Positions 1,024 through 5,055 of a DNA stretch of 13,698 nucleotides are shown here, one piece after another. Under the pieces are notes generated by a model. That model worked only from the letters and a program-made list of their open reading frames with translations. It did no database searches and had not been told where the DNA came from. Origin of the DNA: a virus (Duplodnaviria > Heunggongvirae > Uroviricota > Caudoviricetes); the IMG/VR virus record IMGVR_UViG_2526164602_000022, positions 1 to 13,698 of that record; one strand, given 5' to 3'. Made by a program: the position numbers and the translations under genes. Positions within the stretch are counted from its first letter, which is position 1; the number at the start of each line of letters is the position of its first letter.

Positions 1024-2961
1024 TCATTCTCCTGTTCTGCCTGTATCACTGCCCACTTCATCCAGCCCCTTAACATCCTGCCACGGCCCGTCACCAAACC
1101 TGACCTGCAAATGCTGAAAAAAACCCTGAACCCGTGTGGCATCTTTGGGGGCAAGAAAGGTCAGTCCGGTGATGAGTGCGCCATCTGTATCCGGGAACCA
1201 GCCATTGCTGTTTGTCTCAATAATGTTTCCCGGCCCCAGACGAAAACGGATTTGTGTCTCCCCCGGGTCGCCCTTCGGTCCCTGAGGTCCGGTCGCCCCC
1301 ACCGGGCCTGCCGCACCTGTTTCTCCTTTCGGTCCCTGTGGGCCTGCCGGGCCTGCCGCACCGGTATCTCCCTTTGGACCCTGTGGACCTGCATTTCCCG
1401 TCAGACCGGTCTCTCCCCGCTCTCCCCTGTCACCTTTCGGCCCCTGCGGGCCTGCCGGACCAGCATCACCTGCCGGTCCCCGTTCGCCGGTTGCCCCGAC
1501 AGGGCCGGTGTCACCGCGCTCTCCCTTATCACCCTTCGGCCCAGCCGGACCTGCTGGCCCCGTGTCCCCTTTATCTCCTTTCGGACCGGGAACACCACCT
1601 CCTGCTGCAGCCTCTTCTGCCTTTGTTTTCGCTTCATTTGCCACATCCATTGCCGCTTTCACCGCTTTCGGGGTGGCAGCCTTCGTTTCATCATCACTGT
1701 CCGTTGCGCTGCTTAACTGCACAATTCCCTTCTGTGCCGTCGTTGCATCAGCCACATTTGCAGCGCTGCCTGCCGGACCTGGCTCTCCACGAGGTCCCTG
1801 AGGTCCGGTCTCTCCTCGTTCGCCTCTCGGACCTGCAGGACCAGGTTCACCTCGGGGGCCAGTCTCCCCACGCTCACCTCGTGCTCCCATCGGTCCCTGT
1901 GGTCCGGCTTCTCCTCGTTCGCCTTTAGGACCTTGCGGGCCTGCAGGACCTCCCGGATCACCTTTCTCGCCTTTTGGCCCCATATCCCCCTGGTCCCCTT
2001 TAGGCCCCCGCTCTCCGGTATCCCCCTTCAGGCCTGGTATTCCCTGCGGTCCTCGCTCCCCCTGTTCGCCCTTCTCACCACGCGGACCAGCAGGCCCTAC
2101 AGCCCCCTGAGCACCAACGTCACCACGCTCACCTTTCGGCCCTGCGGGCCCTTGAGGGCCCACTGGACCTGTTTCGCCTTTAGGACCGACATCCCCCTTC
2201 GGACCAGTTTCTCCCTGAGGCCCCCGGGGCCCCCGTGCATTCTCAGCCATACGTCTGGCCTCTTCAGCACTGACAGTGGCAGCCTCTGCCCGCTTAAGGA
2301 TCTCTCCGGCGCTCTCCTGCGCCAGCCTGGCCTTTTCAGCATGCTGTCTGGCTTTTTCTGCATCAGCTCCGGCGGCTTTTTCAGACTCTCCGGCACGGGT
2401 CGAGCTTTCCTCTGCATTCCCCGCTGCTGTGACTGCACGGGTCGCAGCCTCAGTGGCATCAGTCGCTTTTTGTCCGGCTTCAGCCGCCCTGCTGGTTGCC
2501 GTCTTTGCACTGTCAGATGCACTCTTCGCACTGGCTGCTGCACTTTCTTTTGACTGTGTGGCCTGAGTGTTTTTTGTCGCCGTGTCTTCATTCAGGCGAC
2601 GAATAGTGGCAAGGTCATCAGCCACATTATTCTGTATCTGCCGGAAATCTGTCAGCAGTTCTCCGGGTATGCTAACCTCAACAAGACTGCGGCGTAACAG
2701 CATATTGAGCGTCACCGTACTTTCGGTCCCCTCAATACGCACACGTCCGTAGACAGCAGTCTTCCCTTTCACCGTCACCGAAACCGCATACTCCCCCGGA
2801 TCCATCGTCATTCCGTAATATCCACCTTCACGGGTCACTGCCGACGCACTGGTGCCGCTGAGCGCATCCGGTGAAACTGTCAGCGCCGTCAGGGTAATAT
2901 TTGCTCCTGATATCGCCTCACCATCAGGAGATTTCAGCGTCCCCGAAACAACAACACTCAC
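1024..2961 (-). CDS. phage side tail fiber protein (645 aa) with an Ala-rich coiled-coil region, two collagen-like Gly-X-Y blocks, a conserved tail-fibre repeat motif and a distinct C-terminal domain
   Basis: GTG start at 2959-2961 with GGAGG 6 nt upstream; the start overlaps the upstream gene stop (GTGA). Residues about 140-240 are Ala/Ser/Thr/Glu-rich. Residues about 243-398 and 455-568 are near-perfect G-X-Y repeats. Between them lies [27 protein letters not shown], a motif I recall from lambda Stf / P2 H-type tail fibers. The C-terminal ~75 residues are non-repetitive. Confidence 0.85.
1258..1599 (-). repeat. collagen-like Gly-X-Y coding repeat block 2 (about 114 codons) inside the tail fiber gene
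   Basis: Translation residues 455-568 are GXY triplets ([32 protein letters not shown]...). Confidence 0.8.
1768..2235 (-). repeat. collagen-like Gly-X-Y coding repeat block 1 (about 156 codons) inside the tail fiber gene
   Basis: Translation residues 243-398 are continuous GXY triplets ([23 protein letters not shown]...); the DNA is GC-rich and low-complexity. Confidence 0.8.
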
Positions 2962-3608
2962 ACTCCACCTCCGTTAAACACTTTTTTACGGGCATACAAT
3001 GCACTGTCTGCCCCCTGTTTGATCCCAAGTTGCTCAACAAAACTCTGATAATGCTGCGCAGCCAGCCCCGATTCTGCGCCACCGGCAGCATCCTTACTGA
3101 AAGCGCGAAACAACATCCACTCCACCAGTGGGTTAACATAAGCCTCTTCCAGTGGAACTGGCGTATCATCGTCCTGCGTCAGAACATACACTGCCTCCGG
3201 TATCCGGCTTACCACTGCATCAATACTTATCTCTTTGTCAGGAGCAGGAAACAGCCAGAATACGCGCGGGGACAGGTCGTTGCTGATAAAACATTCAGGA
3301 ATACCCTTCATTGTGGGCCACTCAGGATACTGCGCATCCAGCACCTCCCGGGATAATGGTCTGACTGCACTACCGTCACTGAGGCATATCACGTCAAGAA
3401 GTTGTATTACACCATCGGGCAAAACCTGACGGGCGCCAGGAACACAACTTATTGTTTCCAGGCTTGCGCCAGCATCCGGTCTCGCCAGAATCACTGCCCT
3501 CACAGCATCATTGTAATAATCGCACAATTCCTGCAGGGGCCAGCGAACCATCATCGGGTCAACCAGTTGTGTATTCACACGTCCGATGATTTCTGTAATC
3601 GTCGTCAT
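2958..3608 (-). CDS. hypothetical virion structural protein (216 aa) immediately upstream of the tail fiber; possible fiber-attachment or adaptor protein
   Basis: ATG at 3606-3608 overlaps the upstream stop (ATGA) and its own stop overlaps the tail fiber GTG start, so it is translationally coupled on both sides. Function is inferred from position only. Confidence 0.65.
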   Translation of the reverse strand: MTTITEIIGRVNTQLVDPMMVRWPLQELCDYYNDAVRAVILARPDAGASLETISCVPGARQVLPDGVIQLLDVICLSDGSAVRPLSREVLDAQYPEWPTMKGIPECFISNDLSPRVFWLFPAPDKEISIDAVVSRIPEAVYVLTQDDDTPVPLEEAYVNPLVEWMLFRAFSKDAAGGAESGLAAQHYQSFVEQLGIKQGADSALYARKKVFNGGGV

Positions 3609-4171
3609 CAGAAAAACCTCTGCCTGCGTACAGGGTTGCGGTATGAAGAGTACGGGCTTGTCGCCAGTGTATGACGATATGCCCGACGGATCCCCTCAGA
3701 AAACTGCACAGAAAAATACTGTGCGCGTAACGGATCTGACCATGAAACACCAGTCTGCATGAACAACCGCTCAAGTGCCCCCGCAGCCACTTCTTCAGGC
3801 CATGTGAGGAGTTCATCCGGTATCTGGCTGCGTCCGGCTTTCGGAGCGACGGCATAAAGCACGCTCACCTCACCGGGAGAACAGGCAAATCGCAGGGAGC
3901 GTCCGGAGCTGATATCCACATCCCGACCGACAAAAAGCTCATGATTATCGTCAGAGATACGGATGATATGAACGCACTCCTCATCATCTTTGTCATACGG
4001 AAGCACGATTTCTTTTCCTGCTACTGGTACAACAGTAACCTCCCGACGGCACACCAACGACTGGCGGCTGAATGCCACGGCAGCCATTGACAGAGCATCC
4101 GTCATCATAATGTTCAGTGGACCGCTGATATGACGACGGACATACGGTAAAAAATCACTCAGTTCCGCCAT
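3608..4171 (-). CDS. hypothetical virion or head-completion protein (187 aa)
   Basis: ORF track 3608-4279. Preferred start is the ATG at 4169-4171 (MAELSDFLPYV...) with GGAGA 9 nt upstream; the longer form would overlap the upstream gene by 125 nt. Function from position only. Confidence 0.55.
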   Translation of the reverse strand: MAELSDFLPYVRRHISGPLNIMMTDALSMAAVAFSRQSLVCRREVTVVPVAGKEIVLPYDKDDEECVHIIRISDDNHELFVGRDVDISSGRSLRFACSPGEVSVLYAVAPKAGRSQIPDELLTWPEEVAAGALERLFMQTGVSWSDPLRAQYFSVQFSEGIRRAYRHTLATSPYSSYRNPVRRQRFF

Positions 4172-4616
4172 GCTGTTCAGTCTCCGCAACACGACGGCGA
4201 AATGCCTCACGCACCCGGATACGGAATGCCTCAGCCGTTTCTTTCGGGTCTTTGTGAATATCCAGCTCTTCTGCCTCACACAGCGTCGCCAGCCGTGCTG
4301 AGGTGAGCTTACTTAAATCCACCTCCTGCCCGTTAACAGAAACAACAAAACTGTTCTCCGCTTCTGCCAGCGCAGCAAGCACTCTTTCCTGCGCCTGCTG
4401 TGCCTGCCGCAACTGCTCATTCTGTTGTTGCTTTTTCAGAACATCATCAAGCTCTTCATGACGAACCCAGACATCCGGAAACCCCAGCAGTTGCCAGGCC
4501 ATCGCGCTGTCAACATGCACCGGCTCAAGACGTGGGAACAGCGTGCGACTTCCGGTAATGGTGTCCTTTTTCACGGGTTTTGGGCCGATATAGACAACGG
4601 CAATTTTCTCACTCAT
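4155..4616 (-). CDS. hypothetical virion or head-completion protein (153 aa) with a central Gln-rich predicted coiled coil
   Basis: ORF track 4155-4643. Preferred start is the ATG at 4614-4616 (MSEKIAVVYIG...) with GGGGA 5 nt upstream, because the track's first ATG sits inside the upstream terminator hairpin. Confidence 0.55.
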   Translation of the reverse strand: MSEKIAVVYIGPKPVKKDTITGSRTLFPRLEPVHVDSAMAWQLLGFPDVWVRHEELDDVLKKQQQNEQLRQAQQAQERVLAALAEAENSFVVSVNGQEVDLSKLTSARLATLCEAEELDIHKDPKETAEAFRIRVREAFRRRVAETEQHGGTE

Positions 4617-4625
4617 ATAATTCCC

Positions 4626-4652
4626 CGGATAAAAAGCCCGCATGACGCGGGC
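4626..4652 (-). terminator. rho-independent terminator after the 129-aa decoration-like gene
   Basis: Seen in sequence: GC-rich hairpin gcccgc-atgac-gcgggc (plus strand about 4636-4652) followed on the minus strand by TTTTT. Confidence 0.45.
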
Positions 4653-4665
4653 CGGAAGGTTTTAA

Positions 4666-5055
4666 TCAGTATCCCACCACGGTATAACGCAGCAGAACAT
4701 TCAGGGTGCCGGTTGCAGCGGCAGTCTTAATGGTGACAGTAACCAGCTCCCCGTCACGCTGTGTGGTGTACGGCTCCACTGGCACATATCTGGCAAATTT
4801 TGCAGAAACAGCTTCGCTGTTATCGATGAGAGCATGCTCACCGGACTTAATGCTGACGGTTGCAGTACCCAGACCACCCGTTGAAACCAGTTGGAGTGAG
4901 TTGATACGGATGCCCACTGGCAGTGAGAGAAGATGAATAACACTGTCCGCTTCCGCAGCATTCACCGTAAATACGCCTTCTGCCACCGACTCATTACCGT
5001 GCGTACCCGTATAGACCCGTTCACTCAGTGACGGGGCAAGGATAGTCTTTGCCAT
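4666..5055 (-). CDS. putative head decoration or minor capsid protein (129 aa)
   Basis: ATG at 5053-5055 with AGGAG upstream. Sits directly after the major capsid gene and is bracketed by two intrinsic terminators, which suggests an abundantly expressed small virion protein. Assignment is positional. Confidence 0.5.
   Translation of the reverse strand: MAKTILAPSLSERVYTGTHGNESVAEGVFTVNAAEADSVIHLLSLPVGIRINSLQLVSTGGLGTATVSIKSGEHALIDNSEAVSAKFARYVPVEPYTTQRDGELVTVTIKTAAATGTLNVLLRYTVVGY

Follow-up and report, generated by a model that had tools for sequence, protein, structure and literature searches.

The DNA analysed here, called the window below, is a stretch of 13,698 nt that spans positions 1 to 13,698 of the IMG/VR virus record IMGVR_UViG_2526164602_000022 (Caudoviricetes), and all coordinates given are window positions. 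Between its major capsid gene and its tail fibre gene lie only four small genes (2958-5055, minus strand), with products of 129, 153, 187 and 216 amino acids (aa). From capsid to fibre, these are a capsid cement protein (4666-5055, 129 aa; Sakai ECs1224, 933W L0117, phi24B gp67), a 153-aa protein (4155-4616; ECs1225, L0118, Sp5 ORF64), a neck adaptor (3608-4171, 187 aa; ECs1226, L0119, Sp5 ORF65, phi24B gp64) and a tail adaptor (2958-3608, 216 aa; ECs1227, L0120, Sp5 ORF66, phi24B gp62). This region is very probably, as judged from its sequence, the part of the late operon that encodes the head-completion and tail-adaptor proteins of a Shiga toxin-converting (Stx) phage of the 933W/Sp5/phi24B type, a short-tailed podovirus with a T=9 head. 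As such the region is already known, from genetics in 2016, with a knockout screen (Mondal et al. 2016, PMC5155283), and from structural work in 2026, with the cryo-electron microscopy (cryo-EM) and virion proteomics of phi24B reported in a bioRxiv preprint (10.64898/2026.04.10.717836).

The identity of the region with the Stx podophages carries this reading. A megablast search with the window returned 343 phage records, nearly all of them Stx-converting phages, and positions 683-12253 (11.6 kb) are 99.7% identical to VT2-Sakai, which is prophage Sp5 of Escherichia coli O157:H7 Sakai, and to phi24B (vB_EcoP_24B). At the protein level, each of the four small proteins is 100% identical to its counterpart in Sakai (ECs1224-1227), and the identities of the 129-, 153-, 187- and 216-aa proteins to those of phi24B are 100, 100, 100 and 99.5%, respectively. 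The gene order is also that of 933W, Sp5 and phi24B: terminase small subunit, terminase large subunit, portal, a 335-aa gene, capsid, the 129-, 153-, 187- and 216-aa genes, and fibre; the late genes of the window are thus colinear with, and nearly identical to, those of reference phages that are classified in the Sepvirinae, genus Traversvirus.

Regarding the gene boundaries, the list of open reading frames (ORFs) gives longer forms for two of the four genes, namely 4155-4643, which would encode 162 aa from the first ATG, and 3608-4279, which would encode 223 aa from a GTG, next to the shorter starts at ATG 4616 (153 aa) and ATG 4171 (187 aa). The shorter starts are the correct ones, because the PHROGs profiles cover only residues 10-162 of the 162-aa form and 37-223 of the 223-aa form and because the RefSeq annotation of Sakai has proteins of 153 and 187 aa; for the 153-aa protein, it also counts that ATG 4643 falls within a terminator-like hairpin (4653-4635). 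With these starts, the 153- and 187-aa genes overlap by 17 nt and the 187- and 216-aa genes by 1 nt (TGATG). The first-pass annotation, made from the letters and the ORF list, had described four genes of these sizes between capsid and fibre, with overlapping start and stop codons for the last three, and both the list and the sequence bear this out; the overlap extends to the 216-aa and fibre genes, which share GTGA. The four small ORFs are real genes and not chance ORFs, because each has a 100% identical counterpart in Sakai Sp5 and three match proteins detected in phi24B virions.

Two strong terminator-like hairpins, both on the minus strand, are found in the intervals of this region: one lies between the capsid and cement genes (5076-5093), with a 7-bp stem of which 6 pairs are GC, followed by TTTTT, and the other lies between the cement and 153-aa genes (4635-4653), with an 8-bp stem, again with 6 GC pairs and then TTTTT. 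They set the capsid and cement genes, whose products are required in hundreds of copies, apart from the 12-copy adaptor genes, and they may serve for stoichiometry tuning or for mRNA stabilisation.

The assignment of the single proteins combines sequence identity, family membership and gene order, all established in this analysis, with virion positions and copy numbers that are taken from the literature. In the phi24B preprint, the proteins of the proteome are named by genome coordinates, and the coordinates in that listing equate gp67, gp64, gp62 and gp61 with the homologues of the 129-, 187-, 216- and 645-aa genes. As for the 129-aa protein, whose sequence is the same (100%) as in Sp5 and phi24B and which belongs to phrog_486 ("virion structural protein", 4.3e-61), its counterpart gp67 is a capsid cement protein that forms immunoglobulin-like trimers at the three-capsomer junctions of the T=9 capsid, with His19 as an anchor (10.64898/2026.04.10.717836); the protein of the window has a histidine at residue 19. 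Searches of the Protein Data Bank (PDB) by sequence with the 129-aa protein gave nothing meaningful.

The 187- and 216-aa proteins are supported as two dodecameric adaptor rings. In phi24B, gp64 and gp62 have the same fold and are stacked on the portal as two dodecameric rings, and the 187-aa homologue is labelled in the proteome as "gp64 tail tube (adaptor 1)" (10.64898/2026.04.10.717836). The second ring, gp62, provides the transition from C12 symmetry to the C6 symmetry of the hexameric nozzle gp57, and it binds the N-terminal beta-sandwich domains of six trimers of the fibre gp61 (10.64898/2026.04.10.717836). The 216-aa protein of the window is a clear member of the Pfam family PF24175, SU10_adaptor (E = 4.6e-31; 109.2 bits against a cut-off of 27; residues 2-202), and it matches a "virion associated protein" of Ralstonia phage GP4 that is present in 12 chains (8jov_2, 1e-23). 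For the 187-aa protein, no Pfam match was obtained, and the gathering threshold of SU10_adaptor was not reached; used alone, it matched GP4 gp81 (8jov_G, 12 chains) weakly (0.012), and a profile of 18 homologues of its family matched the same chain at 1.8e-9. Two of these 18 members match SU10_adaptor weakly, with 1.9e-5 as the best value, and this is the sole hint by sequence of a fold shared by the two adaptors. The identity of the 187-aa protein as an adaptor rests on the GP4 gp81 match and on the phi24B cryo-EM. In the PDB sequence searches made with all four small proteins, the GP4 adaptor chains were the only meaningful matches.

Several points weigh against these assignments. First, the structural assignments depend on a single unreviewed preprint (10.64898/2026.04.10.717836), and its models are absent from the PDB copy that was searched. 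Second, an hhalign comparison of the 187-aa family with the 216-aa protein showed no similarity in sequence, so that the fold they share according to the preprint was not detected. The others come from the genetics: when ORF63 to ORF66 of Sp5 were deleted individually, only ORF65, the 187-aa gene, was found essential; its deletion led to spiral capsid structures and left no DNase-resistant, packaged DNA, and ORF65 was read as a scaffold, while ORF66, the 216-aa gene, was not listed as essential (Mondal et al. 2016, PMC5155283). It is hard to reconcile the reported dispensability of ORF66 with an obligatory adaptor ring.

If the genetic reading were followed, the 187-aa protein would be the scaffolding protein and not the neck adaptor, and the open spirals of capsid protein without DNase-resistant DNA are indeed the phenotype of scaffold mutants of lambda, P22 and phi29 (PMC5155283). 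However, purified phi24B virions contain this protein, and the cryo-EM model shows it as a ring of 12 copies on the portal (10.64898/2026.04.10.717836); its family profile matches gp81, one of the 12-copy chains in the portal-tail complex of GP4, and the loss of an adaptor that closes the head would likewise leave no stably packaged DNA. Moreover, the design of the deletion also changes the overlapping 3' end of ORF64, according to the primers and the 17-nt overlap. Finally, a better scaffold candidate is found between the portal and capsid genes: the 335-aa head-assembly protein (6349-7356, minus strand; ECs1222, Sp5 ORF61, phi24B gp70; phrog_479) is probably the scaffold, as inferred from its position and phenotype, considering that deletion of ORF61 yields no heads and that its product was not seen on virions by immuno-electron microscopy (Mondal et al. 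2016, PMC5155283), and that gp70 had low counts in the phi24B proteome (10.64898/2026.04.10.717836). Taken together, a scaffold role for the 187-aa protein appears very improbable, and its assignment as the neck adaptor is preferred.

The fibre that docks on the second ring is encoded at 1024-2961 (minus strand, 645 aa; ECs1228, L0121, phi24B gp61); it is a collagen-like lateral tail fibre with the Pfam domains Collagen, Phage_fiber_2, Phage_fiber_C and CarboxypepD_reg, and it is 99.4-99.5% identical to the fibres of Sp5 and phi24B, with a 3' part of mixed ancestry. In Sp5, the fibre was placed at the tail by immuno-electron microscopy, and the knockouts indicated that the fibre and several downstream genes are required for tails (Mondal et al. 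2016, PMC5155283). The stretch with the collagen (Gly-X-Y) repeats of this gene (1000-2600) stands out by a G+C content that rises to 0.61-0.63 and by a strongly negative AT skew; the composition of these repeats also gives rise to spurious long ORFs on the plus strand, at 817-1716, 1254-1928 and 1933-2553.

The first-pass annotation had found none of the four proteins recognisable by eye. Its statement that the block has no tail tube, sheath or tape-measure gene agrees with the PHROGs and Pfam scans of the four proteins, which returned only virion structural, adaptor or unknown families and none of tube, sheath or tape measure; tube or tape-measure homologues among the four would have spoken against a short tail. 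The short-tailed architecture with connector or adaptor proteins that it had proposed is correct: the module is that of the podophages, with the 187- and 216-aa proteins as adaptor rings. Only two of the four proteins are adaptors, as the 129-aa protein is the cement and the 153-aa protein is not among the virion proteins listed. It should be noted that the genes as far as the fibre account for only part of the tail. In intact relatives, the genes downstream of the fibre encode the nozzle (541-567 aa), the needle (422 aa), small proteins, lom and an LPD/MuF protein of 2,784-2,811 aa, which is proposed to be ejected (10.64898/2026.04.10.717836); hence, tube, sheath and tape-measure genes are absent because this phage type is a podovirus, the rest of its tail being encoded downstream of the fibre.

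The 153-aa protein is the only one of the four without an assigned role. It belongs to phrog_482 (1.4e-89), to which PHROGs assigns no function; it carries no Pfam domain itself, no consistent domain emerged when 19 and 48 members of its family were scanned against Pfam, and PHROGs scans of the family returned only families without known function. PDB searches by sequence gave nothing meaningful for it, and a literature search on the locus tags returned nothing specific. An exhaustive profile search recovered 204 clusters (at 50% identity) at E<=1e-3, nearly all of 140-190 aa, and Vibrio phage D80 has a homologue in the corresponding place (31% identity; hhalign E = 4.7e-25). In Sp5, the ORF64 deletion mutant still infects and propagates, and it lysogenises very poorly (Mondal et al. 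2016, PMC5155283). In the part of the phi24B virion proteome listing that was covered, the 153-aa protein does not occur, an absence that is therefore not absolute. An AlphaFold2 model (mean predicted local distance difference test score, pLDDT, 86.7) has a small beta domain at the N terminus, followed by a helix of 36 residues, a hairpin and, at the C terminus, two helices; Foldseek found no match for this model in the PDB at E<=0.001, and its matches in BFVD were only uncharacterised phage proteins.

In its position, its leaky deletion phenotype and its non-listing among virion proteins, the 153-aa protein resembles lambda gpFI, a DNA-packaging chaperone. By sequence, no similarity was detected between the 153-aa family and gpFI (hhalign probability 0.2%), the fold match between the model and gpFI is weak and local, and the order of the domains in gpFI is unlike that of the 153-aa protein; the likeness is offered as one of analogy and not of membership. 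By this analogy, we tentatively infer that the 153-aa protein may be an accessory factor for packaging or head completion that is not part of the virion. A more specific combination, in which the 153-aa protein would be an unrecognised, non-virion, nucleic-acid-binding analogue of gpFI and, separately, if ORF66 is truly dispensable, the tail would assemble by another route in which the nozzle docks directly on the neck adaptor, whose structure is similar, appears unlikely as a whole.

Taken in the order in which they are transcribed after the capsid gene, the four genes thus have the following parts. Trimers of the 129-aa cement protein clamp the three-capsomer junctions; the 153-aa protein, as a conserved accessory factor, may aid packaging or head completion. 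Twelve copies of the 187-aa protein form the first adaptor ring, which sits on the portal, and the 216-aa protein builds the second dodecameric ring, with the same fold, bringing the symmetry down to that of the hexameric nozzle; on this second ring, six trimers of the 645-aa fibre dock by their N-terminal domains. In such a particle, a tube, sheath and tape measure are not needed, as the hexameric nozzle, the trimeric needle and the ejected protein of ~2,800 aa take over their task.

The module was also compared with those of more distant phages. The portal-tail complex of Ralstonia phage GP4 (PDB 8JOV) has 12-copy homologues of both adaptors, as described above, and among GP4 and related Gervaisevirus phages the capsid gene is likewise followed by those of a small protein, the neck adaptor and the tail adaptor. 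There are also differences: the identity is only about 23-33%, GP4-like Ralstonia phages have three genes in the block, with nothing in place of the 153-aa gene, as seen in Claudette (locus 7907-9642), and GP4 carries three different fibre types (10.64898/2026.04.10.717836). With Kuravirus SU10, the likeness is in the 216-aa protein, whose clear membership in PF24175 (109 bits) goes with the same role, that of a 12-membered ring which links the portal to the nozzle; unlike the Stx phages, which have two adaptor rings, SU10 is a prolate-headed lytic phage whose tail is described as consisting of portal, adaptor, nozzle and needle. Finally, Vibrio phage D80 has the same four-gene block, with proteins of 130, 155, 185 and 212 aa (locus 4512-6624), and the block is kept in marine Vibrio podophages.

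The remaining genes of the module lie upstream of the block, and in the ORF list the minus strand carries every substantial gene from 700 to 12,200. The major capsid protein (5111-6325, minus strand, 404 aa; ECs1223, phi24B gp69) matches Pfam Phage_capsid_3 (1.5e-88) and is 100% identical to its Sp5 and phi24B counterparts. The portal protein (7514-9658, minus strand, 714 aa) matches Pfam P22_portal (1.4e-128). It is preceded by the terminase large subunit (9658-11364, minus strand, 568 aa) and small subunit (11345-12151, minus strand, 268 aa), with matches to phrog_2, phrog_24361 and phrog_370 across the two terminase genes.

Both ends of the window depart from the Stx phage arrangement. Unlike 933W, Sp5 and phi24B, this copy has no genes for the nozzle, the needle, lom and the 2,800-aa protein downstream of the fibre, where it has instead a lambdoid end that bears NleG. 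Within 1-1023, only two genes are found, an 89-aa Phage_fiber_C ORF just downstream of the fibre (753-1022), which duplicates the C-terminal Phage_fiber_C domain of the fibre, and an NleG effector gene at the left end of the window (65-640); nozzle, needle and LPD/MuF genes are absent from this interval. The 89-aa downstream ORF has been suggested as a reservoir for variation of the fibre tip (Mondal et al. 2016, PMC5155283). Compared with the right end of the E2863 lambdoid long-tailed prophage, which comprises the 3' end of a side-tail-fibre gene, an 89-aa fibre-C ORF and NleG effectors and adjoins uspF and ompN, window positions 1-1542 have two mismatches only (1294 and 1309). Compared with VT2-Sakai, all mismatches in 683-3000 fall at 685-1368, and these number 33, as many as in the whole 683-12253 BLAST alignment. 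Identity with Sp5 starts at 1369 and identity with E2863 runs to 1542, which places the crossover within the fibre gene, at about 1368-1543. This recombination junction has Sp5-identical sequence to its right, from 1369, and the lambdoid prophage end to its left.

At the other end of the window, a complete IS629/IS1203 insertion sequence (12254-13566) lies upstream of the terminase small-subunit gene, at a distance of 103 bp, and the last 132 bp of the window match ISEc8 transposase sequence; this is where the relatives have bor and lysis genes, which are missing in the window upstream of the terminase small subunit. The stx operon and the Q antiterminator, which in this phage type precede the late genes, would lie beyond this end of the window. 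An exact-protein look-up retrieved several draft E. coli assemblies that share the hybrid and differ from the window by 2-4 nt; in them, three NleG genes come after the fibre, and then uspF, ompN and nifJ. The order of the intact phage is kept in other contigs that have this fibre allele, and the hybrid junction was found in no complete E. coli genome of the searched collection. This copy is a truncated, recombinant derivative, a contiguous element without nozzle, needle and ejection-protein genes, and the downstream tail genes are absent because recombination inside the fibre gene put the lambdoid NleG end in their place. As a consequence of this rearrangement, the copy is probably a tail-defective hybrid prophage.

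The same gene content could suggest a satellite module of the capsid-forming phage-inducible chromosomal island (cf-PICI) type or like the phage-inducible chromosomal minimalist islands (PICMI), which would make its own heads and borrow the tails of a helper: the contiguous copy lacks the nozzle, needle and ejection-protein genes, NleG genes follow the fibre, with uspF and ompN behind them in near-identical contigs, and IS629 takes the place of bor and the lysis genes. The first-pass annotation had raised this alternative, and had itself doubted it given that the element has its own fibre. That doubt was justified, as the block encodes two adaptors in addition to the fibre, and a satellite would be a compact, helper-dependent element with capsid and packaging genes of its own and no tail or adaptor genes. 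Moreover, the block is 99.7-100% identical to the matching part of full-size (57-63 kb), autonomous, plaque-forming Stx phages, no integrase or satellite-type genes occur within the window, and the loss of genes is explained by the junction in the fibre gene and the insertion of IS629, and not by a compact design. A satellite nature is therefore extremely improbable.

Equally improbable is that the element is really long-tailed, with tube and tape-measure genes located just beyond the window. This would fit the left 1.5 kb, which are identical to the end of a lambdoid prophage, and that prophage, in strain E2863, does have J, tape-measure and major tail genes. Nonetheless, the contigs with 2-4 mismatches to the window continue after the fibre with the three NleG genes and then chromosomal genes, with no long-tail genes, and in the same contigs bor and Rz1 precede the head genes; in addition, the types of the adaptors and of the portal are podoviral. 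The short-tailed Stx podophage module, in a rearranged copy, is thus the reading that is retained.

In conclusion, the analysis yields a firm annotation of the window and the recognition of this copy as a rearranged, probably tail-defective hybrid prophage. What remains of interest is the role of the 153-aa family, the contradiction between the 2016 genetics and the 2026 structure regarding ORF65 and ORF66, and the context of the hybrid prophage. The products of the genes described here form the particle by which Shiga toxin genes spread among E. coli, and their functions are for this reason medically relevant.

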